Below are positions 1-63,994 of a stretch of 64,000 nucleotides of DNA, one piece after another. How positions within the stretch are numbered: the stretch's first letter is position 1; every line of letters starts with the position of its first letter. This DNA is from Pseudomonadota bacterium (GTDB taxonomy: Bacteria; Myxococcota_A; Polyangia; GCA-2747355). Below the pieces are notes generated by a model. The model searched no databases. It saw nothing but the letters and a program-made list of their open reading frames with translations, and was not told where the DNA came from. The stretch is from NCBI GenBank assembly GCA_016702545.1, contig JADJDT010000015.1:69744-133743 (forward strand), given 5' to 3'. The position numbers and the translations under genes were made by a program.

Positions 1-11
1 CTAGCCACGAC

Positions 12-332: not shown

Positions 333-364
333 GCTCGACCTCCCTCGCCTACCGTGCTCGGCGC

Positions 365-1453: not shown

Positions 1454-1531
1454 CCGCGTGCTCCTCGATCATTCGCTGCCGTCGGCGTATCTACCACAGA
1501 CGCGCCCCGGGACCAGCCGGGCACGGGGTCT

Positions 1532-3907: not shown

Positions 3908-3938
3908 GGTCCTGGTTATCGCCCAACCGCCGGCAAGG

Positions 3939-3966
3939 TTGACTTACGCGGCGTGGGCGATAGAAT
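3939..3966 (+). promoter_or_regulatory. sigma70-like promoter (TTGACT - 16 nt - TAGAAT)
   Basis: TTGACT at 3939-3944 and TAGAAT at 3961-3966, in a locally AT-rich patch just upstream of ORF 3989. Confidence 0.45.
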
Positions 3967-3988
3967 CCCGTGAAGCTATCAATATCAA

Positions 3989-4750: not shown

Positions 4751-4757
4751 GGCCACC

Positions 4758-7193: not shown

Positions 7194-8528
7194 TCAGCCG
7201 TCACAGATTTCGGGCGTGACCAGCAGCGGCCCCAGGGCCAGCCAACGCTCCGCGCGACCGCCACAGCGCTCGAGCACGATATCGGCCGGCGTCTGCCCCC
7301 GCGCCACCAAAGCGGCCAGCGGGGCCAACGCCTGCGCGGCCTGATCGCCATGAGCGAAGCCCGCGCCCAACTCCTGCCGCGCGCTGCCGAGCAGCGCCAG
7401 CGCGACCGCGCGCGCGGAGCGCCCAGCGATCTCGGCCTGCAGGCCATCGCGGGCGAGCGCGGCACTTGCTGCCTCGCTGGCCACCTCATCGAACGCACCC
7501 AACAACGCCAGCGTGCGGCGTCGCGCCCCCTCCCCGAGCAGCAGCCCGGAAAGCAAGGCGATCACCGCCCGCGCGAGACGCGGCTCCTGCGCATCGACGC
7601 TGCGCAGCTCGATCGTGCGCTTGAGCCGCACGTCGGTGAAGATCGTGCTGTTGTGCAGCTCCAGATCATCGAGCGTCGCCGCCCGCCCGGCAAGGCCCCG
7701 CTCGTTGAGCTCCGCGAAGGTCATGTTCGGCGGGGCGCGCAGCCCCTGCGGCGTCGCGACAAAGAGCAGGGGCACCTCGATCAGGTGGGCCAGGTAGTCG
7801 GAGAAGCCGTAGTCCGGCCGCTGGAAGCCGGGCAGCAGGCCACATCGTGCTGGGTCGGTGTTGCGCCAGATCGGCTGGCGGAACGAGCGGAAGCCTGCGA
7901 GCGCCCCGTCGACGAAGGGCGAATGGGCCAGCATCCCCGCGACCCACGGCGCGACGAAGAGCGCCGCGCGCAGCAGCTCACGGCCCACGGCAGCGTCGCT
8001 GTAGTCGAAGGTGATCTGGAGGCTCGCGCTCTGCCGCATCATCCGTCGCCCCATCGTGCCGAGCTCAGCGAAGTGCCGATCCATCAAGCGATAGCGCTCG
8101 GACGGCAGCACGAGGCCGATCTCATCGACGGTGTGCACGGGGCTGACGCCGCCGAAGAAGGGCTGCACCGCGAAGCGCTCGGCCAGGCTCGCCAGCAGGC
8201 CCTCGAAGCGCCTCAGCTGGTCGAGACAACCGGCGAAGGTCGGCTGCGGCTCGCTGGAGAACTCGAGCTGCCCGCCCGGCTCTAGCGACACCGTGGCGCC
8301 CCCCGGCAGGCTGACCTTCTGCGGCGGGTGGCCCGGCTCGAGCGTGCCGCCCAGCCACTGCGCGGCGTGCGCGAGCACGCTGCCGAGTCCCCGCGCGCCG
8401 TCGTAGCGCAGCGGCGTCAGGGTCTGCCGATCGAAGAGCGGGACCTCGTACTCGAAGCCCACGAGGGCGCGATAGGGTCGCGCTGGATCGGGTCGAAACA
8501 GCGTCAGCATCTCGCTGGCCTCGAGCAT
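7194..8528 (-). CDS. glutamate--cysteine ligase family protein (GCS2 / plant-type GshA-like)
   Basis: 444 aa. The N-terminal block LVGFEYEVPLFD... and the segment GGQLEFSSEP are typical of carboxylate-amine ligases. Confidence 0.7.
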   Translation of the reverse strand: MLEASEMLTLFRPDPARPYRALVGFEYEVPLFDRQTLTPLRYDGARGLGSVLAHAAQWLGGTLEPGHPPQKVSLPGGATVSLEPGGQLEFSSEPQPTFAGCLDQLRRFEGLLASLAERFAVQPFFGGVSPVHTVDEIGLVLPSERYRLMDRHFAELGTMGRRMMRQSASLQITFDYSDAAVGRELLRAALFVAPWVAGMLAHSPFVDGALAGFRSFRQPIWRNTDPARCGLLPGFQRPDYGFSDYLAHLIEVPLLFVATPQGLRAPPNMTFAELNERGLAGRAATLDDLELHNSTIFTDVRLKRTIELRSVDAQEPRLARAVIALLSGLLLGEGARRRTLALLGAFDEVASEAASAALARDGLQAEIAGRSARAVALALLGSARQELGAGFAHGDQAAQALAPLAALVARGQTPADIVLERCGGRAERWLALGPLLVTPEICDG

Positions 8529-8586
8529 CGCTGGCCCCTCCCCTTTTCGATCACCGTCCGCTCGCGACGTGAGCCTGTCGGCTCGT

Positions 8587-25292: not shown

Positions 25293-28200
25293 CAGCGCTG
25301 CAGCTCAGCCATCGCCCGACGCACATCGTCGGCGAGCTCTTCGGGTGGATTGAGCTCGAGGTATTGCCGATACATGCGCAGCGCCTCGGTGCGACGTTCG
25401 AGGCTCTGGTAGAGCTTCCCCAGCGCGTAATAGACCTGCGGCATCCGCGGGCTGAGCCGCACGGCTCGCACCAGCGCGCCCACCGCCTCGGGCTGCCGGC
25501 GCAGCTCCTGCAGCGCCAGGCCGCGCCGAAACGGCGGCTCGGGACAAAGCGGGCAGGCCGTCTCGGCGCGCGTCAGGGCCTCCAGCGCCTGACGCAGATC
25601 ACCCCCATCCTGCAGGGCCACCCCGAGCAGCACCTCGGTGGCCGCCTGTTCGGCCGGATAGCGCACCTGGTCGGCCGCCAGTGCGATCGCTTGCCGCAAC
25701 GCCAGCACCGCCGCATGCGGCCGCGCGGCGCTGAGCTCGAGGCGCCCTTGCGTCTCGTAGGTCTGCCAGGCGCGCGGGAAGCGCCGCAGCATGCTCTGCC
25801 AGGCCTGCCGGGCGCGATCGGGGCGATCGACCGCGAGGTAGGCCTGCACCAGCAAGGACCAGGCGCTGCGATCGTGCGGCAGCGCCCGCACCGCCGCGAG
25901 CAAATGCCCGACGGCCCGACGCCCGTCGTCGGCCGCCAGCGCCAGGCGCCCCGTGGCTAGATCGCGCTGCCCCGCCACGCCTCGGTCGATCTTGAGCAGC
26001 TGCTGCTCGGCCGCCTCGAGCTCGTAGCCGGCCACGCGCACGCGCACGAGCAGGAGCTGGGCTTCGTCGTCGTGCGGCACCCGCTGCAGCAGGGCCTCGG
26101 TCGCCTTCCGTGCGGCGAGCAGATCGTGGCGACCCAGATCGAGCTCGGCCAACCGCTTGGTGGCGATCGTCGACCATGGATACGCGCCCACCAACCGCAC
26201 CAGCTCATCGCGCGCAGCGGTCAAGGCGTGCTCGCCGAGCATCACCTGGACCAAGGCCAGCCGCGGCTCCAGCGCGTCGGCGTCGTGGCGCAGGGCCTGC
26301 TCGAGCGCGCGCCGCGCCTCGCCCAGTCGGCCCTCGGCCAACAGCAGCCCGCCGACGACGGTCAACGCCTCGACCTGATCGGGCTGGCTCGCCGCCAGCT
26401 CGCGCGCCGCCGCCAGCGCATCCTCGCTCTCGCCGCGCGCCGCGGCCACGCGGGCGGCCAAGAGCTGCCCTGCCGGCGAGCTGGCGACCACCGGCCAGGA
26501 CTGCAGCTCACGCGCCGCCTGCTCGACCCGACCCAGGCGGAACTCGACCTCGGCGCGCACGAGCGCCGCCTCGGCCAGCGTGCTCGCCCGCTGCGCCTGC
26601 TCCCAGGCCTCTTGCAGTCGCCCTTCGCGCAGCAGCACCGTGGCGCTCAGCAGCGCCGCGCGCGGGCGCCCGGGCATCAGCGCGGCGGCGGCGGCCGCGG
26701 CGGTCTCGGCCTCACCCACGCGGTCGACCGCCATCAGCGCCCACGCCAACTCCTCGAGGAACACCGGATCGGTCGCGGGAGCCAGGCTGCGCGCCTGCTG
26801 AAGATCGCGCCGCGCCTCGTCCGGGTCGCGCGCCACCCGGTGCAGGTTCCCGAGCAGCAAGAAGGCCCAGGCCTGCTGACCGCGCGCGGCCTCGGCCCGC
26901 AGTTCCCCGTGCAGCACCTGCTGCAGCTGCCGCCCCGCGTCCGCCAGGCGCTCGAGCTCCAACAGACAGCGAGCGCGACCGAGCGCGCTGGCGACGTGCA
27001 CGCGGTTGAGCTGCAGCGCGCGCTGGTACTGCTGGAGCGCCAGGCTCGGCTCGGCGCGCCCACGCAGCGCCTCACCCAGCGCCGCCGCGAAGAGCACGGC
27101 TCGCGGTGCGCGCTGGGTCGCTTGCATCAGCCACTGCTGCGCGCGCTCGGGCTCGCCCCGCAGCAGTGCCAACCGACCCCGCAGGTAGAGCAGCAGGGCG
27201 CTCTCGGGGAACGAGCGCAGCGCGCGAGCAGCGAGCGCCTCGGCCTGATCGAGCTGGCCACCGACCAACCTGAGATACACGGCGGCAGCCGCCTCTTCGT
27301 CGTCCTCCCAGGCACCGTCCGCGATCGGCGCCGGCGCCGCGCCCCATCGATCACCGAACTCGATCGGAATCGCCGCCACCAAGCGCGCGTGCAGGTGCTG
27401 CACGGCGGCCCCACCGCTCCCGGCCCCGCCCGTGGCGCCCAGGAGCTGGGCCGATGCGGTGTAGTCCGCGAGGTTGCCGCGCTCGACGCGCAGGCGCGCG
27501 GCCTCCAAGCGGAGGGCGCTGAGCTGCCGCAGCCGGTAGCCGCGCACGAGGAAGCCGACCAGCAGCGCGAGGGTGACCACGGCGATGCAGCCGATCAGCA
27601 CCAGCGCCCAGCGCTGCGCCGAACGGTCGCCCGCGATCAGCGTCCACCAGCCGGTCCGCGGCCGGCGCCCGAAGGCCGCCGACGGCGCCCGGAAGCGCCG
27701 ACGGGGCACGCTCCGCCCCAGCGACGAGGGCGCCTGGGATCCCCCGGCCGAGGCCTCCGCCGAGCGACTGCCCCAGGAGCGTGCGCTGGGGCGTGAGTCG
27801 TCCTGCGAGCGAGGCCCCGCCGATTCGTCGCGCGCAGCCACGCTAGCCGCGCTGGAGCTTCCAGCGCGCTGCGCGCTGCGCGCGCCGGAGGGGCCCTCCG
27901 CGCGCGCCAGGAGCTGGCTGCGCTCGAGGGCCTCGGTAGGCTGTGGAGCCGCGTTCGCGAGCGGGTCCCAGGTCGCCACCGCGCCTCGGGCACCCACCGC
28001 ACCCCCCGCCGAGAGGGCACTGGTGTGCGACTGCGGCCCGGCTTGGTCGGCTTCCTCCAGCGGTGCCGTCCAGGCGGCCGGCGCCGGCAGCACGAGCGAG
28101 ATCTCCGCCTCCTGGAGCGCGACGGGGGCGCTCGTCGTCAACCCGGTCGCCCTCCTTTCCGGCGGCGCCCGCTGCTCGACGGGCACCCCCACCGGCTCCG

Positions 28201-29464
28201 CTGGCCGCGCCACGGCCGGCTCGGGCGTGTCCGGCAGCAGCGGATCAGCGAGCGCGATCTCGACCGCCGAATCCGTCAGCTCGATCGGCTCCAGGTCGCG
28301 CGGCCACTCCGACACGCCCTTCCGCGGCGCCGGCGAGACGACCGCTCGAGGCGCCAGCAGGTGCGAAACGGTCTCGATCTCTTGGGCCGTGAGCTCGGCC
28401 GGTGCACCGGTGGCCGACGCGAACGCGCGCAGCACCGGCTCCACCGCCACCGACTCGACCGCCGCCGACTCGACCGCCACCGACTCCACCGCCGCCGACT
28501 CCACCGCCACCGACTCCACCGCCACCGACTCCACCGCCGCCGACTCCACCGCCGCCGACTCCACCGCGCGCCGATCGTCGGCGCGCCCACCCGCACGGTG
28601 CGCCAGAGGGGGTCGCAGCGGGCCGCGCATCGTCTGCTGGAACGCCAGGTCGTGCGCCGCCGCCCGCCGCGCCGCATCGGGAACGACGGCGGTGGGCACC
28701 GCGTCGAGCGCACCACGCAGGGCGACGGCGTCAGCGCCGTCCACGGGCGCCCCACCGGCGGTCGGCGCCACCAACTCGCGCGTCGGCACCTCGTGCAGGC
28801 CGCTGACCGGGCGGTAGGCGCCGCGCCGATACAGGCCCGTCAGTTGCTCGTTGGAGGTGACCTCTTGCGTCGCGATCTCGAGCGTAGCGACGGGCAGCGC
28901 CGCCACCGCCTGTAGGCGCAGCGCCCTGAGCAACTGATCGAGTTCCTCGCAGGGCGCGGACACCGGCTGGCGCCACCCCACCTCGGCTGTCGGCGCGGCC
29001 CCCGACGCGACCGGGGCCGCGGCGTCGTCGAAGCTCGCGTCAGCGCCGTCCGGCTCGTTCGTCACCCGCGCCCCAGCGCCGCGCCGCGCGCCGCGCGCCG
29101 CTGCGCGCTGGACGGCCAACTGCTGGAGCAGGTGCTCCAGCGGCTGCACCGCCGCGCCGAGAGCGCGGGCGCGCAGCAGGGCCTGCTCGGCCCGCGCCAC
29201 CGACCCCAAGAGCAGCAGAGCCTCGGCGCGCAGCAGCTCGGCGAGCGGATGGTCGGCCTCGAAGGCCTGCACCGCATCGACCTGCGCTAGCGCCTCGTCG
29301 TACTGCCCCGCGGCCAGCAGCGCCAGCGCCAGCAGCAGGCGCCCCTCGACGCACTGAGGATCACCGAGCAGACCGTGGCGACAGCAGCGGATCGCCTGGG
29401 CCGCGCGCCGCAGCCCCAGCAGACGCCCGGCCTCCACGATGAAGCCCGGCGCGCTCCCACTCAT
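25292..29464 (-). CDS. very large TPR-repeat protein with a central TM helix and low-complexity region
   Basis: ATG at 29464, with an ATGA overlap onto the upstream lipoprotein gene. About 1390 aa. Many TPR-like units occupy the C-terminal two thirds. TM helix WALVLIGCIAVVTLALLVGFLV. Confidence 0.7.
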   Translation of the reverse strand: MSGSAPGFIVEAGRLLGLRRAAQAIRCCRHGLLGDPQCVEGRLLLALALLAAGQYDEALAQVDAVQAFEADHPLAELLRAEALLLLGSVARAEQALLRARALGAAVQPLEHLLQQLAVQRAAARGARRGAGARVTNEPDGADASFDDAAAPVASGAAPTAEVGWRQPVSAPCEELDQLLRALRLQAVAALPVATLEIATQEVTSNEQLTGLYRRGAYRPVSGLHEVPTRELVAPTAGGAPVDGADAVALRGALDAVPTAVVPDAARRAAAHDLAFQQTMRGPLRPPLAHRAGGRADDRRAVESAAVESAAVESVAVESVAVESAAVESVAVESAAVESVAVEPVLRAFASATGAPAELTAQEIETVSHLLAPRAVVSPAPRKGVSEWPRDLEPIELTDSAVEIALADPLLPDTPEPAVARPAEPVGVPVEQRAPPERRATGLTTSAPVALQEAEISLVLPAPAAWTAPLEEADQAGPQSHTSALSAGGAVGARGAVATWDPLANAAPQPTEALERSQLLARAEGPSGARSAQRAGSSSAASVAARDESAGPRSQDDSRPSARSWGSRSAEASAGGSQAPSSLGRSVPRRRFRAPSAAFGRRPRTGWWTLIAGDRSAQRWALVLIGCIAVVTLALLVGFLVRGYRLRQLSALRLEAARLRVERGNLADYTASAQLLGATGGAGSGGAAVQHLHARLVAAIPIEFGDRWGAAPAPIADGAWEDDEEAAAAVYLRLVGGQLDQAEALAARALRSFPESALLLYLRGRLALLRGEPERAQQWLMQATQRAPRAVLFAAALGEALRGRAEPSLALQQYQRALQLNRVHVASALGRARCLLELERLADAGRQLQQVLHGELRAEAARGQQAWAFLLLGNLHRVARDPDEARRDLQQARSLAPATDPVFLEELAWALMAVDRVGEAETAAAAAAALMPGRPRAALLSATVLLREGRLQEAWEQAQRASTLAEAALVRAEVEFRLGRVEQAARELQSWPVVASSPAGQLLAARVAAARGESEDALAAARELAASQPDQVEALTVVGGLLLAEGRLGEARRALEQALRHDADALEPRLALVQVMLGEHALTAARDELVRLVGAYPWSTIATKRLAELDLGRHDLLAARKATEALLQRVPHDDEAQLLLVRVRVAGYELEAAEQQLLKIDRGVAGQRDLATGRLALAADDGRRAVGHLLAAVRALPHDRSAWSLLVQAYLAVDRPDRARQAWQSMLRRFPRAWQTYETQGRLELSAARPHAAVLALRQAIALAADQVRYPAEQAATEVLLGVALQDGGDLRQALEALTRAETACPLCPEPPFRRGLALQELRRQPEAVGALVRAVRLSPRMPQVYYALGKLYQSLERRTEALRMYRQYLELNPPEELADDVRRAMAELQR
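28441..28567 (-). repeat. in-frame 15-bp tandem repeat (8.5 units) encoding an AVES(A/V) pentapeptide array
   Basis: Direct reading of CCACCGCC(A/G)CCGACT units. The translation gives AVESAAVESAAVESVAVESV.... Confidence 0.9.
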
Positions 29465-29910
29465 GGCAGGGCCAGCACCGGCAACGGAACCCCACCGATC
29501 ACGCGCTGCTCGACCAGCTGCCAGCCGTCGGCGCCATCGACCCAGCGCTGGGCGACCAGCGTCGCGCCCAGCGAGCCGCTGCGCAGTGCGTACCACTCGA
29601 CCTGCACCAGGGCGCGCGCCGTCCCCGCGCCGAGCACCTCCACGCGGGTCAGAGTCACCTCGACGATGCGCAGCTCGCGCCAGGCCGCACCCCGCGCCAA
29701 CAAGCGCTGGCGCGGCCTTTCACCGAGATAGGAGGCCAGCCCGCCGAGGTCGCCCCAGCGCAGCGCGTGCTGATAGGCCTCGACGGCGTCCTCGAGCAAG
29801 GCGCGCCGATCGCCCGCACAGGCGGCCAGCAGCGCGGCCAGCAACGCGCCGCAGCGGACGACCCCCAAGGGCCCCCTGCGCGACCCGACACGCCGCTCAG
29901 CGCCCCCCAT
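29461..29910 (-). CDS. hypothetical lipoprotein
   Basis: 149 aa with lipobox-like LLAAC. Translationally coupled to the TPR gene. Confidence 0.55.
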   Translation of the reverse strand: MGGAERRVGSRRGPLGVVRCGALLAALLAACAGDRRALLEDAVEAYQHALRWGDLGGLASYLGERPRQRLLARGAAWRELRIVEVTLTRVEVLGAGTARALVQVEWYALRSGSLGATLVAQRWVDGADGWQLVEQRVIGGVPLPVLALP

Positions 29911-53443: not shown

Positions 53444-54161
53444 GGCGCATGCCCTTCCGCGGGCGCGACCGGCGGGACGCTTGCCTGTGCAGGCGGTTGA
53501 CCCGACGACGCTGTCGCGGCGTCGAGGCGCTCCAGTTCGGCCCGCCCACGCTGGATCAGCTCGTCGAGCTTCAACAAGCCCGCGGCCAATTGCCTCGCGC
53601 TCTTGTACTCACTCTCGGGGTCGATGTACCGCGTGACCTTCGAAACGGAGGTGTGCGCGACCTCGCCTCGAGCGGAGCCGAAGGATGAGAGATCCGACAG
53701 CAGCGTGGCGTCAATTTCAGGCGCGCCGATGCCGAGCGGCAGGAGCAACCTGAGGACGTTCTCCTCCTTCAGCCCGTGGTTCTGGCGCTGGGCCGACCTC
53801 CACACGGCCTGCGCCTTCTGGATGGCGTCACGAACATCCAGCTCAGCCCCTTGGTCCTTGAGCGACGAAGGCGGGGGAGTGCGTGGTTGCGACCAGAGAA
53901 CGCGAGCAAGCCAAGCAGAACTCGTGACGGGGTGCCGCGCTCAGACCACGCAGCCCAGGCGGCCTGGAAGAGATCGCTCGCAATCTCCTCGACGTAGGCC
54001 TCCATCTCCGCGTGCACGAGCACCCGAAACGATGCCGCCCGAAGATGCACTTCGTCGGGCTTGTCGTACGTGCCCGTCGGGTCAAACGGATCGGGCAAGA
54101 GCACCTTCCGCAGACGCTCGATGGCGTTTCCAAGCCTTTCGTGAAGCTCCGATCCGGCCAC
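53440..54161 (-). pseudogene. HEPN-domain (Rx4H) nuclease-like gene, frameshifted
   Basis: The N-terminal part is ORF 53769..54161 and the C-terminal part is ORF 53440..53805. The C-terminal part contains RGEVAH (Rx4H). The frames meet at a G5 run (53873-53877). It resembles the MAE_28990/MAE_18760-type HEPN genes that accompany DUF262 genes. Confidence 0.6.
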
Positions 54162-54164
54162 GTC

Positions 54165-55342
54165 TCACCCCAGAAGCTGGAGAAGGTGATCCGCTTGTCC
54201 GCGATCTTGGGAACGGCGAAGTCGAGGCCTGTGGCCTTGCGCAGCGCGCTCCCCCACGCGTCGAGTCGGAGCGCGGTGTTCTCCACACCTGCGGTGTCAC
54301 GCTCGACGGCAGCAGCGAACGCTCTGTCGGCGAAGAGGTTCGCATAGGCCGCGCGAACATCGTCGCCGTGGAGCGCGGTCGCCTCTCGAATGCGCGGATC
54401 CACGGCGAAGAACAGCAGCGCGTCTAGAATCGCTCGATTGAGCTGCCTGGAGCCGGGCTTTCGCGCGACGCCATCCGGAAACACCTGAAGGAGCGACAGG
54501 ATGGCGGCGTCGAACGAGTCGGCAGCCGCCACGATCGCGTCCTTCTTCGCCGGCCAGGTCTTGTTCATGTCCTCGAAGGCTGCATCGAGAAACGACTTGA
54601 AGCGTCCCCCGTAGGTCCCGAGGAAGAAGTGAAAGGCCAGGTAGCGCGCCAGCAACTCAACGTCGCGCATTCGGTAGTCGGGACCCTCGAGGCCGAGGAG
54701 GTCCCTGAGCCCCGTACTCTCGACCGAGCGCTCGTCCACGAAGTCAGTGAACTCGCCGGGGAAAAGGGCCTGCCGGAGTTCCTGCGGAGAGAGCTTCACG
54801 CTGCCTGTGTTCAGGCGAAGGAAGACCAGATGCAGGAACTCGATGTTGGGCCAGTTCTTGATTACGACCGTCCGAATCGGCTGATTCAGCAAGGACGTGA
54901 AGTCGTCGAGAAGCGCCGGGTCCCCTTCGAGGTCGGCGTACGTCTTGCCGGACAGCCCCTTGCGCACGTCCAGACCCGACAGTCGGTAGGAGTTGTTCGG
55001 GCCCTCGCCGAATCCCCAGAACTGAAGGAGAGAGCAACCTTTGCTTCCCGTCCAGCACCACGAAGCTCCTCTGCGCTCGCGTGATTCCGCCAGGACGATC
55101 TGGGGAATCGGCAGGCCGAGGATCAAGGACTCAATGAACTGGCTCTTCCGCTGTTTGTCCCAAGCATCGCGCCGCTGAAATCGAGGCTTCAGCACGATAT
55201 TGCCCCGCTTCAACTGGGACACGACGGTCTCCGTCGTCCAATCGGTCGCATGAAGGACCACATCGGAGTAGCGGACCTGAGCACTCGGCTCCGATGCTTC
55301 CTCGCTCGAGGCTTCCGAGAATTCGACGGGATCACGGGTCAT
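54165..55342 (-). pseudogene. DUF262 (ParB/GmrSD N-terminal-like) protein gene with a scrambled DGQQR motif and no native stop
   Basis: ATG at 55342. LKPRFQRRDAWDKQRKSQFIESLILGLPIPQIVL is a DUF262 hallmark. The expected VVLDGKQRLLS motif is readable only in another frame (55028-55069). The ORF then runs on to 53843 across the HEPN gene. Confidence 0.65.
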
Positions 55343-55427
55343 CGTTGCTCTCTCCGTTTTCGGTGTCTTTCGAGGCGTCCGTGGGCCCGCAGATCCACCT
55401 CGCGTAGCGCTGCGACCTCCGCGCCCC

Positions 55428-56249
55428 TCATGGCGCAAGCCCCCTCGTCAGCCGTCGCACGTAGCCCCGGTCGATGAGGCTCTCGAACTGCGTCCGCAGC
55501 GCCCGCGCGAAGACCGCGTCCTCGAGCAGGACGCCTGCCTCGATGTTTCGGCCTTGGGCGGCCTCGGTCAGGTTGGCGGAGGTGACGAACGCGCGCGCGT
55601 CGTCCACGACCACGCACTTGGCGTGCAGGCACGCGCTCTCCTCACCCACCGCCTGGAGCGAGCGCGGGTCGTAGTAGACCTCGGGCACGGGTTCCCAGGG
55701 CCAGATCTCCTTCCGGAACCAGCCGACGAAGGCGTCCTCGACGTCGCGCTCGGACGCGTGCGCCATGTAGTCAAGGCGACGGAGGTTCACGAAGATGCGC
55801 ACCGTCAGGCTGCTGACCTCGGCCATGCGCTTCGCGAGCGGGAGCAGCACCGGGTTGCCCTTGGCCTCGCCTTCCTTCGCCTTGTGGCCGAGGTTGAAGG
55901 TCGAGACGACGACCGACTCACGCGCTCCGCGAAAGAGCTCGTTGCAGACGACGGCCGTGTCCCGCGAGCCCGCGATGTCGAGATCGGACCAGACCAGCGA
56001 TGGCTGCGGCTTCACCTCGCCCACCCTTCGCGCCGCCTCCGCCAGACGCAGCGCAGCGACGAGCGCGCCAGCCTCGAGGCCGGCAGCGTGCAGCGCCTCG
56101 ATCAACCGCAGCGCGTCGGTCTGCTCGCCCTTTGCGACCTGACGCCCGACCTGCATCGCGCCGAACGGAGCGACGAGGGCGCCGCGCTCCACGGCACCAG
56201 CGAGCGCCCCGAGCGCCGTCGCGGACAGGATCGGAAGCGCCTCGCTCAC
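55428..56249 (-). CDS. drmC: phospholipase D-family protein, DISARM DrmC-like
   Basis: 273 aa. HKD motif LHAKCVVVDD...SANLT. GTGA overlap with the drmB stop codon. Confidence 0.75.
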   Translation of the reverse strand: MSEALPILSATALGALAGAVERGALVAPFGAMQVGRQVAKGEQTDALRLIEALHAAGLEAGALVAALRLAEAARRVGEVKPQPSLVWSDLDIAGSRDTAVVCNELFRGARESVVVSTFNLGHKAKEGEAKGNPVLLPLAKRMAEVSSLTVRIFVNLRRLDYMAHASERDVEDAFVGWFRKEIWPWEPVPEVYYDPRSLQAVGEESACLHAKCVVVDDARAFVTSANLTEAAQGRNIEAGVLLEDAVFARALRTQFESLIDRGYVRRLTRGLAP

Positions 56250-58081
56250 GAGCCCTCCGCGAAGAACGCGGCGTCAGCAAGGTCGACCGTCGGAACAACC
56301 AGCGAGCGGTCGAGCAGCTCGTTGCGCCGCTCGCACGAGGGCTCCGCGATCAGCAGGCATCCGTGGCACGCCGCCCCGTGCATGATGCGCCCTTCGTGGA
56401 GTTGGTTCGGCTTGTGCTGCGCGCAGACCGGGTCGTTGCTGCAGAGACGTCCGAGCTCGAGCGCGGCGTCGAGGTGGCGCGCGATTCTCCGGCCAACCTG
56501 CACGAGGCCGCCGAGCGTGCCCTCGGCGTCCGGCGTGCCGGTGTAGAGCAGCAAGCCATAGGCGCCGTCGCGCACGTAGATGCGCTCGCGGATGCTCGCT
56601 GCCGCGTAGCCGCACTCGAGCGAGATCGCTGTGAGCAGGAGGTGCGAGAGCGAGTGCAGCATGATGTACGGCATGTAGATCTGCTCGACGCGCTCGAGCG
56701 GGATCGGGTTCTTCGAGGTACTCTGCACCCCGCCCTGGAACTCGAGCGCGCGCTGCTTCACCGCGGGGCGAGTCGTCCACGCCTTCACCTTCGCGGCATC
56801 GAGCGCGAGGAAGACGCCCTCGCCGCGATTCTCAATGGCCGGCAGCCAGCGGGTCTCGAGGGCGAGCGCGGCGAGGCGAACACCGAGGTCGACCTCCGAG
56901 TCGACGGGCAGCGCCGGAGATTCGAACCGGGTGAAGCCGATCTCGCTGACAACCTCGCGAAGTCGGTGGGCGAGCACCACGCGCTCGACCGACGCGATCG
57001 CCCCCTTGCGCTTGGCATCGAGCGGCAGGCGTCGCGCGTAGAAGTCGCCCTCGGGCTTGTCGTCGCCGAGCTCGTCGGGAACGGAGAGGAACGTGTCGAG
57101 CTCGACGTCCTTCAGGCCCTTCTGCGTCTCCGCGCCTCCTCCTTGACGACGCTCGCACTCGGCCCAGACCTCGGCATCGGTCAGTCCTTCGAGTGCGAGC
57201 TGCACGCGTTGCTTCTTTCGCTCGCGCTTGATGTCCGCCGCGCTCTCCGCGACCGAGAGGAAGTCGTCCCAGACCGAGTCGACGGCCTTGCGGAGGCGCT
57301 CGTCGTGATCCGGGATCGAGATCGCGCGCTCGACCACAGGGAAGTACGCGTTGCTAGCGTGGCGGATCAGGAGCTTGTTGCGGTGGGGCTTGTCGTGAGG
57401 GCCAACGCAGGTCTCCCTCGCCATCGGCCCGAGCCACGGGCGATCGCCGCGGCACTCGCCGAGCACCGACCGCTCCTCGGACGTAGCCTGCAGGCGAACG
57501 AGCGACATCGGCTGGCTCGTGCACCCATCACATCGGACAAACAGCTCGGCGAGATCGCCAGTCGTGCCGCGCTCGTCGAACCAGAGTTGGCCGCCGCAGG
57601 CGACTCCGTCACCATGGACGAGTCGCGGCCAGTCGATGTCGCTCACGTGACCGTTGGGGCAGGCCTGCACGAAGCGAACGGGCACGACAGGCCAGTCCTT
57701 GCGCTTGCGCTTGCCGGTTGGATCGTCTCCGACGTAGCGCCCCTTCACCAGCGCCTTGCGGTGCACGAGCGGTCGAGACCGACCGTACTGCTTGGTGCTC
57801 ACCTCGAACTGCGCGACGAACCACTCAGGGAACTGCCAGGCGACGATGCCGATGCCGAGCTCGTCCTCGCGCTCCGGGACTGGCGGCGAGCGCAGCTCGA
57901 GGAACGGCAGGCCAAGCCGGCGACGCAGGTTCGCGAGCAGTCTCGGCTCGGGGACGAGCTACGCATCGCCGGCCCAGTGCTCGAGGCCCGCGACGAGCAC
58001 CGCGTAGTCCGGGAGATCGACGAGCGCGCCCGGCCCGTACGTGGAGACGATCTGGCTCTGACGAATCTTGACGATGCTCAC
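56246..58081 (-). pseudogene. drmB: DUF1998 protein, DISARM DrmB-like, interrupted by an in-frame TAG
   Basis: GTG at 58081 (GTGA overlap with drmA) gives VSIVKIRQSQIVSTYGPGALVDL... A TAG at 57959-57961 is in the same frame as ORF 56246..57802. Translation across it is continuous and protein-like. C-terminal Cys cluster CHGCLLIAEPSCERRN. Confidence 0.75.
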
Positions 58082-61000
58082 GTCGCCTCCGGGGTGCCGC
58101 CGTCGAGGCGTCGCACGATGACGGGCACCTCGGCCTCCACGTCGCGCAGCGACCACTGCGCCTTGAATTTGCGGAGCTTGGAGTGCGGCGGCTCCTTCTT
58201 CAGATCCGCGTCGAGCGGGTCGTGCAGCAGCGGTGGCCGAGGCTTGGCCTCGAAGGGCCCGTACTGGAGCCCGGCCTGCACCGCGGCCTTCTCCGCGGCG
58301 ATCTGCTCCCAGGTGTCGAGCAGATCATCGACACGCGCGTCCATCTTCCCGCCCAGCTCCTGTCGCTCTGCGGGCTCGAGATCCTTCGTGTGGTTCTCGG
58401 CGCGCGCCCGCACTGTGGTCTTGAGCCAGCCGAGCCGAGACCGATGCAGCGCGAGATCCGCCGCGCGTGCGGCAGGGGTGAGCGCCGCCTCGCCGTGGCG
58501 GGCCAGCGAGACCACCACGGCGGCGAGCCCGCGGTCGACAGCGCGTGGGGCGAACGGCGTCACGCTGGTCGCCTCGACCGCCCGATAGAAGGTCTCGTGG
58601 TAGGCCTCGAACCGCTCGTAGTGCGAGCGGTCGCGGGGCTTGTGGACGTTGAGCAGCGTGATGACCAATCCCGGGCGCTCTTCGTCGCGGCCGACGCGGC
58701 TCGTGGCCTGGATGTACTCGGCCGAGGTCTTCGGCTGACCGAGCACCACCATCAAGCCAAGGCGGGTGATGTCGAGACCGACGGAGATCATGTTCGTCGC
58801 GAGCGCGACGTCGACCCGGCCATCTTCTGCAAAAGGGAGCGCGAGGCGACGCTTCGCCTGCGCGACGCGGTTGGTCGGCTCGCGCGAGGTGAGCTCGATC
58901 GCGTCGAACTGGATCGTGCGGTCCACGAACGGGCATTCAGCCTCGGCCACCCTTCGATGCCGGAAGTAGCCCTGGAGGCGGCTGCGCACCTCGTCCTCGA
59001 CAATGCGGCGGCTCCCACCAAGCTCGCGCAGGGCGTTGAAGTACCCAAGGAGCGTCATGTAAGGGTCGGCGGGATTCGTCGCGTTGGCGGCGCCACCGGC
59101 CGCGTCGTAGTGCTTCTTCCCGGCCGAGAGCAGCGCCAGGTAGGTGCGCAGCAGGACGACCTTCAAGCTGCGCCCCTGGGCTGCCACGCCGACGTAGAGC
59201 CGAGGGTGCTTCACGGAAACGCTCACGGTGTGCGCGAAGAACGAGTCGCGCCGATCGGGACCAGGCGGCGGGAACACGTCCACCTGCGAGCGATTGAAGA
59301 GCGCGCGAACCTGGGCCTCGGCGCGCCGCACCGTCGCCGTGGACGCCACGATCTTCGGCAGCACGGTCTTGCCAGCGACCTCGCGGCGACAGAGGGCCTC
59401 GACGGCGGTCTCGTACAAGCCGACCATCGTGCCGAGCGGCCCGCTGATGAGGTGCAGCTCGTCCTGGATGATGAGGTCGGGCGGCAAGAACGGCCGCGGC
59501 AGCTTGCTGCCGCCCGCACCGTCGCCCGGCCCGTAGAAGCCGCCGCCGTCGAACCGCTCGACCTTTCCGAAGAGCTTGCCCGGGGTCGAGAGCCAGGGCA
59601 GCGACGCGAGCTTGTCGACCGTGGCGATGATGAAGCACGGCAGGCGTCGGTAGAGCGGCTCGTCCACCGCGACGATTGGGAGCGGGTTGTCGCGCGTGAA
59701 CGCGCAGTCCTCGTTCGCGCAGGTGATGCGCAGATCGGTCGGCTGATCCGTCGTGGGAATGAGGCGGAACGAGGTGGCCTCGAATTTGGTGCCGCACCAA
59801 GGGCAGTTCTCGATAGGGATGGGCGCAGGCTTGTACTTGCTGTCGCCTTGAAAAGCGATGGTCCGCGCGCGCGCCGAGCTGCGGTCGTTGTCGCCCTTCT
59901 TGCCCATCCGGTTCGGGGTCGCTTTGCGGCCGACCCAGAGGCCGATCTCGAAGGGCCACTTGCCGAGCTTCTCGACGTCCTTCTCGCGCTCGAGCTCGAG
60001 GGCGCAGATGAGCGTCGCCGCGCGGCCGAGCTGGTCCAGCGTGAGGAGGCGCAGCGTGTAGCGCATCAGGACGCTGACGCCCGACGAACTCACGCTCGGA
60101 TCGCGCAGCCTGCGGAGCGCGAGCGTGAACGCTGCGAGCCCCAGGTAGGCCTCGGTCTTGCCGCCGCCGGTGGGGAAGAAGAGCAGGTCGAGGACCTCGC
60201 GCTCGGGGTCGGTGGGCTTCGCGATACCGCGAAGGTTCATCAGCACGAAGGCGAGCTGGAACGGGCGCCACGTCGGCGCGCTCACCTGGTCGGGTCTCCA
60301 TCCCTTGAGCTGCGCCGTTCGCTGACGCGCCGCCGCCGCCGCCATCGTGCGGTTCGCGATCTGGAAGGCCTCGAGCACGAGCGGGTCCTCGAGCTCGACG
60401 AGCCCCTGGGCGATGCGCTGCCGCGCGAGCTCGCAGCGATCGAGGAGATCCTTCGCGACCTCAGCGCGCCGCTGCTGAGTCGGCGCAGCCGCGCGCTGCC
60501 TGGCGATCCAGGCGCCGTACTCCGTGCCGAACGCGCCGAGTGCGGCCTTCGCCTCGGCTGCCGTCTTCACGGCCGCGAGCTTCTCCATCGAGAGCTCGAC
60601 GCCTGCGATGCTGGTGGGGTCGACCTTCTCCACGGCCGCGACGGGGATCCACGTGCTGCGAACCTCGTGGCACACGCCGCCTTCGATGATCGCGTCGGTC
60701 GAGACGCCATGACCCACGGAGAACTCGAAGGCGTCGCGGTACTGGAGATCGGCGATGCGCTCGTCGGCGTCGTCATCGACCAGGCCGCGGAGATTCGGTC
60801 GCGCGACGAAGCCCTCCTTAAGCTTCAGGATCAGCTGGGCCTGAAAGAGGTGCCCCTCGTCGACTCGCTCTTCGCCCTCGGGGTCACGCTCGTTCACGAC
60901 GAACACGGAGACAGCGCGCGTGCCCGCGGGTAGCTCGTTTCCCTTGGGGCCGAGGTTGCTCACGTCGCGAGCCGACACGTAGAGGCACACGCCCCTGCTG

Positions 61001-61482
61001 TCGGGCAGCTCGGTGCGACCGAGCCCTTTCGGGGGAAGCGAGACGTCGACGGTGTGCCTGCGCTGCGTGCGCTGCCACGCCTTGCGGTCGGGGTGCTCGG
61101 GATCCTCCGTCGACACCTTGGTGTAGTCGCCCCACAGCACCTCGGCCGAGAGCGTCTTCACGCCCTTGGGCACGAGCACGCTGATGCCGAGCGACGATGG
61201 CAGGAAGACCTTGCGCGCAGGGGCCTTGTCGGGCTCCACGTCGTCGTCACCCGTGCCCTCGTCGGAGCCCACGACCGCGTCGAGGACCTCCTCGGATTCG
61301 GGGTCGTGCCGCTGCGACTCGGGGGCCTCGGTGGGGACGAGGAAGCCCGTGAGGTACCAGCGAGACGGAGGCTCACTCTCCCACAGGCGCTCCGCCTCGA
61401 GCGCGTGGCCAGGGCCGGGCCCGACCAAGTCGAGCTGCAGGGTGTCGATGAGCTTCTGCCGGATCTCTGCGGAGGTCGTCAT
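58078..61482 (-). CDS. drmA: large SF2 helicase, DISARM DrmA-like
   Basis: ATG at 61482, 1134 aa. Motif I PTGGGKTEAYL, motif II IIQDELHLISGPLG, motif VI-like YIQATSRVGR. Confidence 0.8.
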   Translation of the reverse strand: MTTSAEIRQKLIDTLQLDLVGPGPGHALEAERLWESEPPSRWYLTGFLVPTEAPESQRHDPESEEVLDAVVGSDEGTGDDDVEPDKAPARKVFLPSSLGISVLVPKGVKTLSAEVLWGDYTKVSTEDPEHPDRKAWQRTQRRHTVDVSLPPKGLGRTELPDSRGVCLYVSARDVSNLGPKGNELPAGTRAVSVFVVNERDPEGEERVDEGHLFQAQLILKLKEGFVARPNLRGLVDDDADERIADLQYRDAFEFSVGHGVSTDAIIEGGVCHEVRSTWIPVAAVEKVDPTSIAGVELSMEKLAAVKTAAEAKAALGAFGTEYGAWIARQRAAAPTQQRRAEVAKDLLDRCELARQRIAQGLVELEDPLVLEAFQIANRTMAAAAARQRTAQLKGWRPDQVSAPTWRPFQLAFVLMNLRGIAKPTDPEREVLDLLFFPTGGGKTEAYLGLAAFTLALRRLRDPSVSSSGVSVLMRYTLRLLTLDQLGRAATLICALELEREKDVEKLGKWPFEIGLWVGRKATPNRMGKKGDNDRSSARARTIAFQGDSKYKPAPIPIENCPWCGTKFEATSFRLIPTTDQPTDLRITCANEDCAFTRDNPLPIVAVDEPLYRRLPCFIIATVDKLASLPWLSTPGKLFGKVERFDGGGFYGPGDGAGGSKLPRPFLPPDLIIQDELHLISGPLGTMVGLYETAVEALCRREVAGKTVLPKIVASTATVRRAEAQVRALFNRSQVDVFPPPGPDRRDSFFAHTVSVSVKHPRLYVGVAAQGRSLKVVLLRTYLALLSAGKKHYDAAGGAANATNPADPYMTLLGYFNALRELGGSRRIVEDEVRSRLQGYFRHRRVAEAECPFVDRTIQFDAIELTSREPTNRVAQAKRRLALPFAEDGRVDVALATNMISVGLDITRLGLMVVLGQPKTSAEYIQATSRVGRDEERPGLVITLLNVHKPRDRSHYERFEAYHETFYRAVEATSVTPFAPRAVDRGLAAVVVSLARHGEAALTPAARAADLALHRSRLGWLKTTVRARAENHTKDLEPAERQELGGKMDARVDDLLDTWEQIAAEKAAVQAGLQYGPFEAKPRPPLLHDPLDADLKKEPPHSKLRKFKAQWSLRDVEAEVPVIVRRLDGGTPEAT

Positions 61483-61531: not shown

Positions 61532-62426
61532 TCAGCATGACCACCCCGCATCCGTCACGGCCGCCTGCTTGGCGGATGGCACATGGTGCAGGTGGCCTGG
61601 GTTCCCCTCCGTCGAAGGCGCAGCGAATTCGACAACGTTGATCTGGGCGACACCGATCGCCTGTTGCGCCGCCGCGTTGTGGATGAAGACGTCCCAGTGG
61701 TACCCGGCACCGCCATTGATGTTCGGGCGAGCCCACCCGTTGTCGTGGGCATCGACCCAGGCGTGGCCTAGATGCAACGGTGCGGAATGCAGTGATCGAT
61801 CCCTTCCACCACTGGTTGGGGACGCAAAAGGGATAGCGGGCTCCGTCCGCCACCGTCGGCAAGCGCCAGTCGAAGCGCGCCGTCCAGGGCTCGCGGAGGT
61901 TGCGCGGGTGGTACACGCACAACACCTGGCGAGGGCCAACGCCGCTCGGCTGCACATGCAGCACCCAGCGCGTGTTCTCGTGGAGTGTGGAGTTCCCCGC
62001 GGTGTGGATGACGAGGTTCCGCCCGTTCATTCGACGGCAGAACATGACGACCTGTTGGCCACTCGAAACAGCCCGAATCACCGCGAGGGCCATCCTGTCG
62101 GTCCACGGTAGCTGGAGGTGGGGGCCACCGAATAGCACGGTGAATCCTCGACGCCATGCGACGCCCGCGTTCGCCGACAGCGCGGCGATGTGCGCGTCCG
62201 ACGACGGGGCAGCGCGTCGGACCGCTTGGAGCGTTCGTTTCGCCTCGGCCGAAAGCTGACTCTCGAGGGCGCTTCCAATCTCGCTCCACAGCGCGGGCCA
62301 ATACTCGCGGAGCGGCGTTAGCTCGATGTTGTGCTCGCGACACGCGCGCAGAACGACCTCGAGATCGCTCACCACCTCGGCTTCGGCGCGAGCGAGGAAC
62401 AGCGTGGGGTCGAGGAGGCCGATCAT
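61532..62426 (-). pseudogene. unknown partner gene of the AAA ATPase, apparently frameshifted
   Basis: ATG at 62426 (ATGA overlap with the ATPase stop). Beyond roughly 61800 the GC3-rich, protein-like frame switches to that of ORF 61532..61957 (..HLGHAWVDAHDNGWARPNINGGAGYHWDVFIHN..GHLHHVPS). No family was recognised. Confidence 0.5.
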
Positions 62427-63994
62427 GGCGCTTCGTCCCTCTCGGGTTCGTCGTTGTCGTTCCAGTCCACGTTCCCGGTGGAGGCGTCGTTTTTCGTCTT
62501 GTCGAGCTTCGCGTAGTAGATGGCGCTCTCTTCGTCGGTCGCTTCATCCATGAAGTCGGCGGGCCACACCTCGCCGACGCCACCCTCCGCGGTCAGGTGG
62601 CTCGACGTCACGGTGGAGAGCCCGGCCGCATCCTGCTCTACGCTGAGCACCACGACGTTGCCGAGAAGCCACTGCTCTAGCTCGGATCCCTTGCCAGCGC
62701 GCGCAACCAAGCCGCGCAGCCGCCGCACGAGATGGTCGCTGTGCGTCTCGACAATGAGCCTGCGATTCGTCATCGCGAGGCTCACCAGCCAATGCGCAAG
62801 CTGGCTCGCGACCTTGGGGTGAAGATGCGCCTCAGGCTCCTCGAGAGCGATATGCGTGTAGCCGGGACAGCGCGCCGCGTAGGTCGCGACCGGCGTGCTG
62901 CCGGCCTGCCCGTCGAAGTGCAGCGGGTCTGCGATGAGGCCGAGCTCGATGAGCGGCAGGAGGTAGCCAAGCCCACGACCCACATGCGACAGGCTGGCGC
63001 TCCCAAAGAGTACACGGAACCCGACTTCGTGAATTTCCTCGACCCTGAGCGGCGCACTGATCCCAAGTGCGGCAAGCGTCTCGTTCACGGCCTCGACCAG
63101 GGGCACAGCCTGCACCTCGGAGGGGAGGCTCGGCGCTGCGACCTGCAGCGGCCGCGCGAAGTGGACGAGGTCCTTCTGCCGCCGGTGCAGGAGTTGGGCT
63201 GCAAGCTCCCCGGATACGCCGATCTCGTTCGGAGCCGTGGTGGCTATCTTGAATAGGCTCGGCGGCGGCTGGCGCGTCGAGCCCAGGTATTGGAGGCCGC
63301 TGAGGATCGACTTCAATGCCTGCAGGGGCTGTGCGAACAGAAATAGGAAGCCGTTGCGATAGGCGCGCTGCTTGTCGCGCGGACCGGGGCTGCCGGTGAT
63401 GTTCACGTACGGGATGAAGTGCTCGACCTCGGCGACCAACTTCGGCGCGCTCTGATCCGCCCACGTCACGCTGGGCTCCTCGTGGGGACGGATCACCACG
63501 GAGACCGGCTCGGGCGTGATTGCGTCGAGAGTGAGCTGTGAGATACGTGCGCTCCCTGCGACCTCCTCAGTATCGATGCGCAGCCGTGTTCGAACGGCAC
63601 GCTGCCCCGTTGCAGAACCGAGCCAGTTCAAGGTGTGTTTCGCAAGGTTGGCTCGATCAGGGTTGCGCGCCTCCGCCACGGCCTCGTCGATGTCGACCTC
63701 TGACTCCCACTCGACCTCGATCGACGGGCCGACGATCCTTCCGTTCGCAGGCGGCCAGCCGGAGGTCAGCTCGCGCAACGACAGCGCGTCGACGAGTCCG
63801 TCGAGGCGAAGGGGAACCTCGGGGCGCACCTCGGCGAGGGTCTGCTTCAATAGCAGCAGCGCCTGAATTAGGGTGCTCTTGCCGGAGTTGTTACGTCCCA
63901 GAACGATCGTGAGCGGCGCGAGCTCCACGCGCGTCGGGGCCGAGTACGACTTGAAACGCTCCACGGAGATCGCGACGAGTTTGCCCTTCTTCAT
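62423..63994 (-). CDS. AAA15/AAA21-type ABC-like ATPase (DUF3696-like C-terminus)
   Basis: Walker A GRNNSGKST, Walker B/D-loop IALEEPEAHLHP, H-loop VETHSDHLVRRL. 523 aa. The start lies 6 nt from the window edge. Confidence 0.75.
   Translation of the reverse strand: MKKGKLVAISVERFKSYSAPTRVELAPLTIVLGRNNSGKSTLIQALLLLKQTLAEVRPEVPLRLDGLVDALSLRELTSGWPPANGRIVGPSIEVEWESEVDIDEAVAEARNPDRANLAKHTLNWLGSATGQRAVRTRLRIDTEEVAGSARISQLTLDAITPEPVSVVIRPHEEPSVTWADQSAPKLVAEVEHFIPYVNITGSPGPRDKQRAYRNGFLFLFAQPLQALKSILSGLQYLGSTRQPPPSLFKIATTAPNEIGVSGELAAQLLHRRQKDLVHFARPLQVAAPSLPSEVQAVPLVEAVNETLAALGISAPLRVEEIHEVGFRVLFGSASLSHVGRGLGYLLPLIELGLIADPLHFDGQAGSTPVATYAARCPGYTHIALEEPEAHLHPKVASQLAHWLVSLAMTNRRLIVETHSDHLVRRLRGLVARAGKGSELEQWLLGNVVVLSVEQDAAGLSTVTSSHLTAEGGVGEVWPADFMDEATDEESAIYYAKLDKTKNDASTGNVDWNDNDEPERDEAP

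Follow-up and report, generated by a model that had tools for sequence, protein, structure and literature searches.

The 64,000-nucleotide (nt) stretch analyzed here (contig JADJDT010000015.1 of the Polyangia assembly GCA_016702545.1; hereafter the window) ends on its minus strand with the gene of an ABC/OLD-type, NsnB-like ATPase that is directly followed by the gene of a smaller partner protein. A previous sequence-only reading had singled out these genes as a candidate two-gene module formed by an "AAA15/DUF3696-like" ATPase of 523 amino acids (aa) and a partner of ca. 300 aa. The ATPase open reading frame (ORF; 62423..63994, minus strand), assigned with Pfam, PADLOC, and AlphaFold2 (AF2) modeling followed by Foldseek searches, indeed encodes 523 aa and contains all three motifs that had been pointed out, i.e., the Walker A motif GRNNSGKST (63872-63898; residues 33-41), EEPEAHLHP (62816-62842; residues 385-393), and ETHSDHL (62729-62749; residues 416-422). 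Its Pfam matches to AAA_15 (E = 1.4e-20) and AAA_21 (E = 7.6e-17) place the family identity far beyond chance, which bears out the first half of the proposed label, whereas the DUF3696 half holds only weakly: the C-terminal tail WPADFMDEATDEESAIYYAKLDK (62498..62566, minus strand) resembles DUF3696 (PF12476) at E = 0.05 with 14.3 bits and thus misses the cut-off, which is 22.

The stop codon of the ATPase overlaps the start codon of the partner in an ATGA (62423-62426, minus strand) as had been noticed before, an arrangement of translational coupling whose zero-gap junction is common to many relatives. The partner gene (61532..62426, minus strand) is frameshifted in the window by a one-base insertion (61765..61766; GG on the plus strand versus a single G in relatives) that breaks the frame after residue 220 of an intact product of 297 aa. 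Residues 1-220 are encoded in one frame (62426..61767) and the last 77 residues in another (61765..61532), including GHAWVDAHDNGW as well as GYHWDVFIHN and GHLHHVPS. The additional C of the coding strand is found only in the window and not in its relatives L001, L004, and L033 (96%, 90%, and 81% nucleotide identity to the window, respectively), and the switch of frame at ca. 61770 is also visible in the codon-position GC profile. Without this single base, the partner comprises 297 aa and can be aligned over its whole length to over 100 intact homologues that are themselves ca. 297 aa long, in agreement with the predicted size and with the frame repair that the sequence-only reading had deemed necessary. 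We rejected a programmed frameshift because the insertion is restricted to the window, lacks a slippery heptamer, and has no counterpart in the other family members, which are all encoded in a single frame. Compared to intact relatives, the repaired partner has a ratio of nonsynonymous to synonymous substitution rates (dN/dS) of 0.12; the values between intact copies are 0.10-0.11, and the partner is under purifying selection.

A conserved pair of ATPase and partner genes

We fetched 37 loci with a member of the partner family (labeled L001, L002, and so on), 36 of which include the DNA upstream of it. An ATPase of the same family is encoded directly upstream and on the same strand in all 36, with 0-120 nt between the end of the ATPase and the start of the partner and often with the very same overlap. 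The partner always follows this ATPase family, and the two genes form a genuine module that has been conserved. It is found in about ten bacterial lineages, comprising Polyangiaceae and other Myxococcota, cyanobacteria, gamma- and betaproteobacteria, Magnetococcales, a Leptospiraceae metagenome-assembled genome (MAG), and Vulcanimicrobiota, with Cupriavidus oxalaticus, Pseudomonas spp., and Stigmatella ashevillena among its hosts. The pair occurs either alone or inside or beside methylation-based immune systems, i.e., DISARM (defense island system associated with restriction-modification), MADS (methylation-associated defense system), and type I and type II restriction-modification (R-M) systems. 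No third gene recurs when 118 neighbors of the pair from 21 further loci are compared to Pfam and PADLOC: the commonest families, Uma2 and PDC-S03 (PDC, phage defense candidate), account for three proteins each, and the defense genes among these neighbors are scattered (PDC-S03, mad2, mad6, DarTG, type II methyltransferases, and PD-T4-6).

The repaired partner has 156 homologues in a collection of 5.8 billion proteins, nearly all of them 290-305 aa long, all labeled as hypothetical, and none with a Pfam domain. When 1.84 billion representative proteins were searched exhaustively with a profile, 130 clusters at 50% identity resulted, and the family is small and of one fixed architecture since essentially all of these clusters are full length or fragments. 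The repaired partner itself has no match in Pfam, NCBIfam, or PADLOC, a profile of the family has none among PDB sequences, and 108 relatives have no Pfam match at E ≤ 5, including to Toprim, HNH, and DUF4435. The partner is therefore neither a PtuB-like HNH protein nor an AriB-like DUF4435 protein, and the earlier statement that it lacks Toprim and HNH motifs and belongs to no recognizable effector family stands. Together with the strict co-occurrence with the ATPase, this supports the reading of the two genes as a module and as a previously undescribed variant.

Apparent exceptions to the uniform layout could be traced to artefacts. Partners that seemed to consist of the C-terminal part alone, such as a 186-aa protein of Stigmatella, were rejected because the full ORF is intact and the short form is a gene-calling artefact: the cultured and completely sequenced Stigmatella ashevillena (L035; JAQNDM010000002.1) carries an intact 297-aa partner ORF at 7638-8558 of this locus that overlaps the ATPase stop codon, and its annotation as a 186-aa protein (WP_272141743.1) is an error. 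Three partner fusions (P0353, P0361, and P0370) were likewise rejected as cases of domain shuffling and are deletion or frameshift artefacts. In the metagenomic protein P0353 (590 aa), the C-terminus of a drmMI-type methyltransferase continues in frame into the final 58 partner residues, apparently by a deletion that took out the ATPase and most of the partner in a DISARM-embedded copy. The partners of L014 and L023 are truncated or internally deleted.

Predicted structures of the two proteins

The AF2 model of the window ATPase (predicted template modeling score, pTM, of 0.80) retrieves SMC/Rad50 heads, including 5h68_A, as well as the OLD protein of retron-Eco8, GajA, OLD, and PtuA in Foldseek searches, with E values of 1e-10 to 1e-8. 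The protein is an ABC ATPase of the SMC/Rad50/OLD type. Neither Pfam nor PADLOC detects a Toprim domain in it, with the GajA matches confined to the ATPase motifs, and a PDB search with its sequence gave no match. In the C-terminal tail (WPADFMDE...YYAKLDK), residues W477, P478, F481, M482, D483, E484, Y493, and K499 are invariant across 65 homologues, while the pLDDT (predicted local distance difference test) values of this segment are low in the monomer model. By analogy to published NsnB-NsnC models (PMC12065111), from which we take this role, the tail is a candidate docking site for the partner. A variant of the ATPase is found at L034 (6910-11074): it is 690-713 aa long with an N-terminal extension of 185 aa that resembles a PADLOC type II restriction-enzyme model (5.5e-20), and it is translationally coupled to an N6_N4 methyltransferase encoded upstream.

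For the partner, we modeled an intact homologue that is 84% identical to it, using an alignment of 108 sequences. The resulting AF2 model is very confident (pLDDT 95.1, pTM 0.91) and resolves two domains, and Foldseek searches with it found nothing below E = 0.1 in the PDB and BFVD. These comparisons are of the kind that the sequence-only reading had called for, and the partner is a presumed effector without a detectable sequence family or structural relative despite this very confident model.

The N-terminal alpha/beta domain (62040..62426, minus strand; ca. residues 1-129) has the order of secondary structure elements b-a-a-b-a-a-b-a-a-b and is Rossmann-like in the model. The interpretable Foldseek matches, none of them significant, are PIN proteins, namely VapC (4xgq_A; TMt 0.41) and PAE2754 (1v8o; TMt 0.37). 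D6 is invariant and E41 nearly so, and we take these two residues to lie roughly at the first two positions of the PIN catalytic acids; no third or fourth acidic residue is conserved, i.e., the catalytic set is incomplete. The model therefore weakly suggests a degenerate, PIN-like domain.

The C-terminal, beta-rich domain (61532..62039, minus strand; ca. residues 130-297) is the presumed toxic effector. It contains the conserved motifs RRxxGRN, ENTRW, CxxHxRN, WxD, GNGWxRP, GYHWDV, QxN, HHxP, and a terminal GWxC, with invariant Arg, Trp, His, Asp, and Cys positions; H243, D245, H280, and H281 belong to the conserved residues. We suspect that C170, H173, C201, and C297 form a Cys/His metal site, and the idea that the partner is a metal-dependent nuclease, raised before on account of its His-rich C-terminus, is speculation. 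A lead to a toxin function of this half of the protein comes from divergent family members: P0348, which is linked to the partner family by a profile match (A2; E = 1.3e-16), reaches 25.7 bits against the Ntox17 family of Pfam (gathering cut-off 25; E = 1.4e-5), and P0360 matches the same family with E = 0.0036. Both matches fall into the C-terminal half, in the region homologous to WxD...GNGW...HWD, and neither the window partner nor any of its 108 close relatives scores against Ntox17. This family (PF15524) comprises mostly-beta domains that form the C-termini of polymorphic toxins, bear an 'ExD, H' signature, and are paired with Imm31 immunity proteins (Zhang et al. 2012, PMC3482391). The partner domain would share the mostly-beta fold and conserved acidic and His residues with Ntox17, with two divergent members matching outright, but differs from it in context, as there is no RHS, MafB, or secretion gene and no Imm31-like gene at the pair.

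Comparison with Menshen and other ATPase-effector systems

Pairing an ABC ATPase with a separate effector is among the designs most often encountered in bacterial immunity, and the sequence-only reading had drawn parallels to Septu, PARIS, and Gabija. The general architecture holds, whereas the nearest system is the NsnB/NsnC half of Menshen. NsnB is the top PADLOC model for the window ATPase (5.5e-44), with a single matching stretch that spans positions 4-337 of the 345 in the profile, followed by PDC-M55A, the ATPase of HEC-03 (Hma-embedded candidate 3), AriA, and GajA. We obtained the identical ranking for the ATPase copies of Pseudomonas, Stigmatella, and L034, and NsnB is the sole full-length match throughout.

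Menshen (Millman 2022; Li et al. 2025) is organized as an nsnA-nsnB-nsnC operon, and its published census was seeded from NsnA (PMC12065111). The best structural neighbor of NsnB is 5H68, the inactive PIN (inPIN) domain of NsnC is nearest to 1v8o, and AlphaFold3 models of an NsnB4-NsnC2 complex show two DUF3696 tails clamping the inPIN domain (PMC12065111). The window pair resembles this system in several ways, as its ATPase has an ABC fold with the SMC head 5h68 among the top matches and a conserved C-terminal tail with weak similarity to DUF3696, its partner seems to share the layout of NsnC in that a PIN-like N-terminal domain with an incomplete catalytic tetrad precedes a putative toxin domain at the C-terminus, and the pair is often found beside R-M-like systems. 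On the other hand, the pair lacks a gene for NsnA (ParB-DUF262 plus ParBDB), the window ATPase exceeds the NsnB profile by ca. 180 aa and has EEPE in its Walker B region versus EN in NsnB of S. silvestris, and the effector domain of the partner matches no named Pfam family of NsnC C-termini (DUF4160, DUF4276, RloB, Gp49, and others). The PADLOC model of NsnC does not match the partner either. No DUF262 gene lies within 10 kb of the pair in any other lineage except for L002/L014, where it encodes a BrxU/HEC-05-type enzyme on the opposite strand, and the pair is not a canonical Menshen system because no NsnA gene accompanies it elsewhere.

The other known systems are more distant. HEC-03 is an experimentally validated two-gene defense for which both genes are required (Payne et al. 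2024, 10.1101/2024.01.29.577857). Like the window pair with its putatively PIN-like partner, it consists of an ABC ATPase and a PIN-domain protein encoded by two genes embedded in another defense system, and the C-terminal half of the window ATPase matches its PADLOC ATPase model with 1.6e-24. However, HEC-03 has as its partner a PIN nuclease that is VapC-like and presumably active, whereas the PIN-like domain of the window family lacks two catalytic acids and is followed by an additional C-terminal domain of 170 aa, and the PADLOC model of the HEC-03 partner does not match our partner. PARIS (AriA/AriB) and Septu (PtuA/PtuB) share the scheme of an ABC ATPase scaffold with a separate small effector, and the window ATPase is similar to AriA (1.9e-22 in PADLOC) and, at the level of the model, to PtuA (8eea/8sux; ca. 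5e-9 to 1e-8 in Foldseek). The AriA match is confined to two stretches that hold the N-terminal and the C-terminal ATPase motifs and is not full length, and the partner is neither a Toprim/DUF4435 nor an HNH protein: no HNH family match was obtained for it or its 108 relatives, and no His-Me finger appeared among the Foldseek results. Gabija and OLD differ from the window pair in that its ATPase has no fused Toprim nuclease and no UvrD-like (GajB) neighbor. Finally, Mad3/Mad4 of MADS, RloA/RloB, and AbiLi/AbiLii are ATPase and small-protein cassettes that are similarly nested in methyltransferase-containing systems, and the window ATPase matches mad3 weakly (5.5e-10 in PADLOC, 3.6e-6 in NCBIfam), with a divergent family member occupying a mad3/mad4 slot (see below). 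Their small proteins Mad4, RloB, and AbiLii are of the Toprim-like DUF4276/RloB type, unlike the partner, which has no Toprim motif or match.

We therefore favor, with moderate confidence, the interpretation that the two genes form a self-contained, translationally coupled defense cassette of an ABC ATPase and an effector that is nearest to the NsnB-NsnC half of Menshen and independent of NsnA. Several observations weigh against this interpretation. The PIN-like assignment is derived from non-significant Foldseek matches (E of ca. 1-2, TM of ca. 0.4), and the Ntox17 link is indirect, being transitive via P0348 with 0 of 108 close members matching, while the activity of Ntox17 is itself putative. 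The partner has one fixed architecture without domain shuffling, unlike NsnC, which is highly polymorphic with 35 inPIN families and 15 effector families (PMC12065111). Moreover, the copy of the pair in the window is disrupted, and many pair loci (e.g., L032 and L035) lie amid housekeeping genes with no defense neighbors.

The latter context could also be taken to mean that the pair functions in something other than phage defense, be it addiction in the manner of a toxin-antitoxin module or DNA repair by the ATPase together with a cofactor, all the more as AAA_21 is also the AbiEii/type IV toxin-antitoxin family and SMC/Rad50/RecF-like folds are the top structural matches of the ATPase. We consider this very doubtful, given that the best profile matches of the ATPase are all defense ATPases (NsnB, PDC-M55A, HEC-03, AriA, and GajA), that DISARM, MADS, and R-M systems repeatedly harbor the pair, and that divergent members provide the Ntox17 toxin-domain lead. 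The patchy distribution of the partner, with its 130 clusters among 1.84 billion representatives, likewise fits a mobile accessory module and not a core function.

Many embedded candidates built in this way are on record, with 145 PDC candidates catalogued (10.1101/2024.01.29.577857). The cassette would add an unannotated effector family with a confident model and neither a sequence-family match nor a structural neighbor. It would also indicate that the NsnB-NsnC half of Menshen can stand alone as a two-gene unit, which censuses seeded from NsnA would miss since the pair comes without it. The pair is amenable to experiments because intact copies are present in cultured Stigmatella, Pseudomonas, and Cupriavidus strains, e.g., Stigmatella ashevillena, Pseudomonas sp. 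L-22-4S-12, and Cupriavidus oxalaticus JPY540.

Genomic settings, proposed role, and probable decay of the window copy

In the window, the pair is followed on the same strand by drmA (58078..61482), an intact DISARM helicase gene (PADLOC DrmA, 5e-290) whose start was set by comparison with L001, drmB (DUF1998/MZB; 56246..58156; PADLOC DrmB, 1.4e-65), and drmC, encoding a PLD nuclease (55428..56249; PADLOC DrmC, 1.1e-70; Pfam PLDc_2). The DNA beyond the end of the window (upstream of 64000) was inferred from L001, which carries drmD (SNF2), drmMI (N6 methyltransferase), and a PDC-M38-like pair of AAA and DUF3226 proteins upstream of the module and has no DUF262 gene in this place. With drmABC in the window and drmD and drmMI in L001, the gene set of class 1 DISARM is complete, and the window pair thus lies within an operon of this system. 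The window lineage (with L001 and L004), L033, and L021 share the order drmMI-ATPase-partner-drmA, the last of them having a DrmA with 55% and a partner with 41% identity to those of the window, and L010 has a drmA-like N-terminal piece directly after the pair. At L036 (4396-6846), a divergent pair including partner P0348 is located between an N6 methyltransferase gene and NERD-kinase/MAD7 genes and fills the mad3/mad4 slot of a MADS-like locus. Elsewhere, the pair adjoins a type I R-M system and a BrxU-like enzyme (L002), an Eco57I-type methylase with XhoI (L003), an N6_N4 methyltransferase (L034), or ubiquitin-like/ThiF genes and a PDDEXK nuclease (L030). The nesting of yet another small cassette of the abortive infection type in DISARM and MADS would bear on how layered defenses are assembled.

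These settings raise the question of how autonomous the pair is. If it were an accessory or guard subunit of DISARM, MADS, and R-M systems that works only with them, e.g., by firing upon their inhibition, one would readily understand its position between drmMI and drmA in several lineages whose DrmA differ by up to ca. 45%, the methyltransferases adjoining it at L002, L003, L034, and L036, and the distant member in the position of mad3 and mad4, which are required for MADS defense yet variably present (10.1101/2023.03.30.534895). PrrC, PARIS, and Gabija indeed fire in response to anti-restriction proteins (10.1101/2024.01.29.577857). Strict dependence on such hosts nevertheless appears quite unlikely to us because neither a methyltransferase nor a DISARM gene lies within 8-10 kb of the intact pairs at L030, L031, L032, and L035 and because none of the 25 most frequent Pfam families among the 118 neighbors mentioned above is a methyltransferase or restriction family, although in PADLOC two of these neighbors matched mad2 and at least one matched type II methyltransferase models.

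The frequent nesting of the pair in methylation-based systems suggests, by analogy to PrrC, PARIS, and Gabija, that it may have a guard role triggered by anti-restriction factors. In its most far-reaching form, this idea would make the pair an NsnA-independent offshoot of Menshen that serves as a portable guard cassette for DISARM, MADS, and R-M systems, senses phage interference or an anti-restriction protein, and releases a toxin of new fold that is distantly related to Ntox17. We put this forward as a tentative and, on balance, unlikely scenario; if true, it would provide the first biochemical handle on the Ntox17 toxin family.

Returning to the self-contained cassette that we favor, a possible mechanism can be sketched from the NsnB4-NsnC2 models, Septu PtuAB, PARIS AriAB, and the validated HEC-03 system. 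An ATPase oligomer would hold the partner via its degenerate PIN-like N-terminal domain and the invariant ATPase tail, by analogy to the first three of these examples, until a phage cue, possibly an anti-restriction factor, shifts the nucleotide state of the ATPase. The Ntox17-like, His/Arg/Trp-rich C-terminal domain of the partner might then be released or activated, and the freed domain would damage nucleic acid, resulting in an aborted infection.

In the source genome itself, the pair is most likely non-functional because of the +1 insertion in the partner and a nonsense codon in the adjacent drmB. This codon (57959-57961, minus strand) reads TAG in the window and CAG (Gln) in L004 and splits drmB into an N-terminal piece of 65 aa (58156..57959) and an ORF of 518 aa, so that DISARM is probably inactive as well. 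Further lesions are found downstream in a decayed DUF262 gene and a HEPN-like remnant (together 53515..55438, minus strand), adding up to four over the terminal 10 kb of the window: the frameshift of the partner, the drmB nonsense codon, a double shift in the DUF262 gene, and frame changes in the HEPN remnant. In the DUF262 ORF (53843..55438, minus strand), the motif VVLDGKQRLLS at ca. 54950-55060 is out of frame with the flanking protein because two compensating frameshifts ca. 45 nt apart swap out the DGKQR motif alone, with the rest of the ORF being open.

It could be argued that the partner frameshift is a sequencing or assembly error and that the gene is intact in the organism, which we regard as a serious though somewhat unlikely alternative. 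Through the insertion, a short run of G is two bases long instead of one, and the dN/dS of the repaired partner, being the same as between intact copies, shows no sign of long-term decay, so that the lesion must be of recent origin unless it is an error. L001, a contig of a related MAG, carries a 1-nt insertion of its own in the partner, and its drmD (661 aa and 316 aa) and drmMI (851 aa and 151 aa) are also split (1-5632); these additional splits are typical of error-prone assemblies, as L001 may be, and reflect either parallel decay of the island or MAG indel errors. For the window, however, a codon-GC Viterbi scan for frame breaks over its whole length (45 coding segments) found breaks far from a stop codon in the partner and the DUF262 region and nowhere else, with long genes elsewhere being intact (AcrB, 3.1 kb; drmA, 3.4 kb; a 4.1-kb coding segment at 25350-29465), which favors real mutations. 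The neighboring drmB lesion is a substitution and not an indel, and a compensated pair of shifts as in the DUF262 gene is unlikely to arise from random error. The window partner is thus probably a pseudogene in a decaying island, and the local biological importance of this copy is accordingly small.

The DUF262 gene, which is located 6 kb downstream of the pair and behind drmABC, matches GmrSD_N (1.8e-12) as well as the PADLOC models NsnA (4.6e-43) and PD-T4-2_A (3.5e-29). Since its protein (55438..~54200) has its best PADLOC match, near full length, to NsnA just as the ATPase has its best to NsnB, and since ATPase, partner, drmABC, and DUF262 gene form one row on one strand, we considered the possibility of a canonical three-gene Menshen system that was split by insertion of drmABC between nsnC and nsnA. 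This reading is extremely improbable, and we rejected it. Homology between the window and its closest relative L004 stops at 55422, right at the drmC stop codon, with unrelated genes and no DUF262 beyond this point in L004. It would also be at odds with the published nsnA-nsnB-nsnC order (PMC12065111) and with the distribution of DUF262 genes around the pair described above. Furthermore, the window DUF262 gene is followed by the HEPN-like remnant (53515-54128, minus strand), which extends over two frames, has an R-x4-H motif (ARGEVAH), and matches HEPN_RiboL-PSP (E = 0.0012) and PD-T4-2_B (E = 0.0019). Judging from these matches, the DUF262 gene and the HEPN remnant would constitute a separate, decayed PD-T4-2-like pair that is specific to the window, missing from L004, and outside the ATPase-partner module.

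A second ATPase pair directly upstream of the module is found at L001 (6088-8054) and L031 (6155-8121) and only at these two loci. It consists of an AAA_15/21 protein of 367-394 aa and a DUF3226 protein and matches the PADLOC candidate PDC-M38. The last bases of the window contain an ATGA at the start of the ATPase gene, suggesting that the same PDC-M38-like gene may precede the module here, too.

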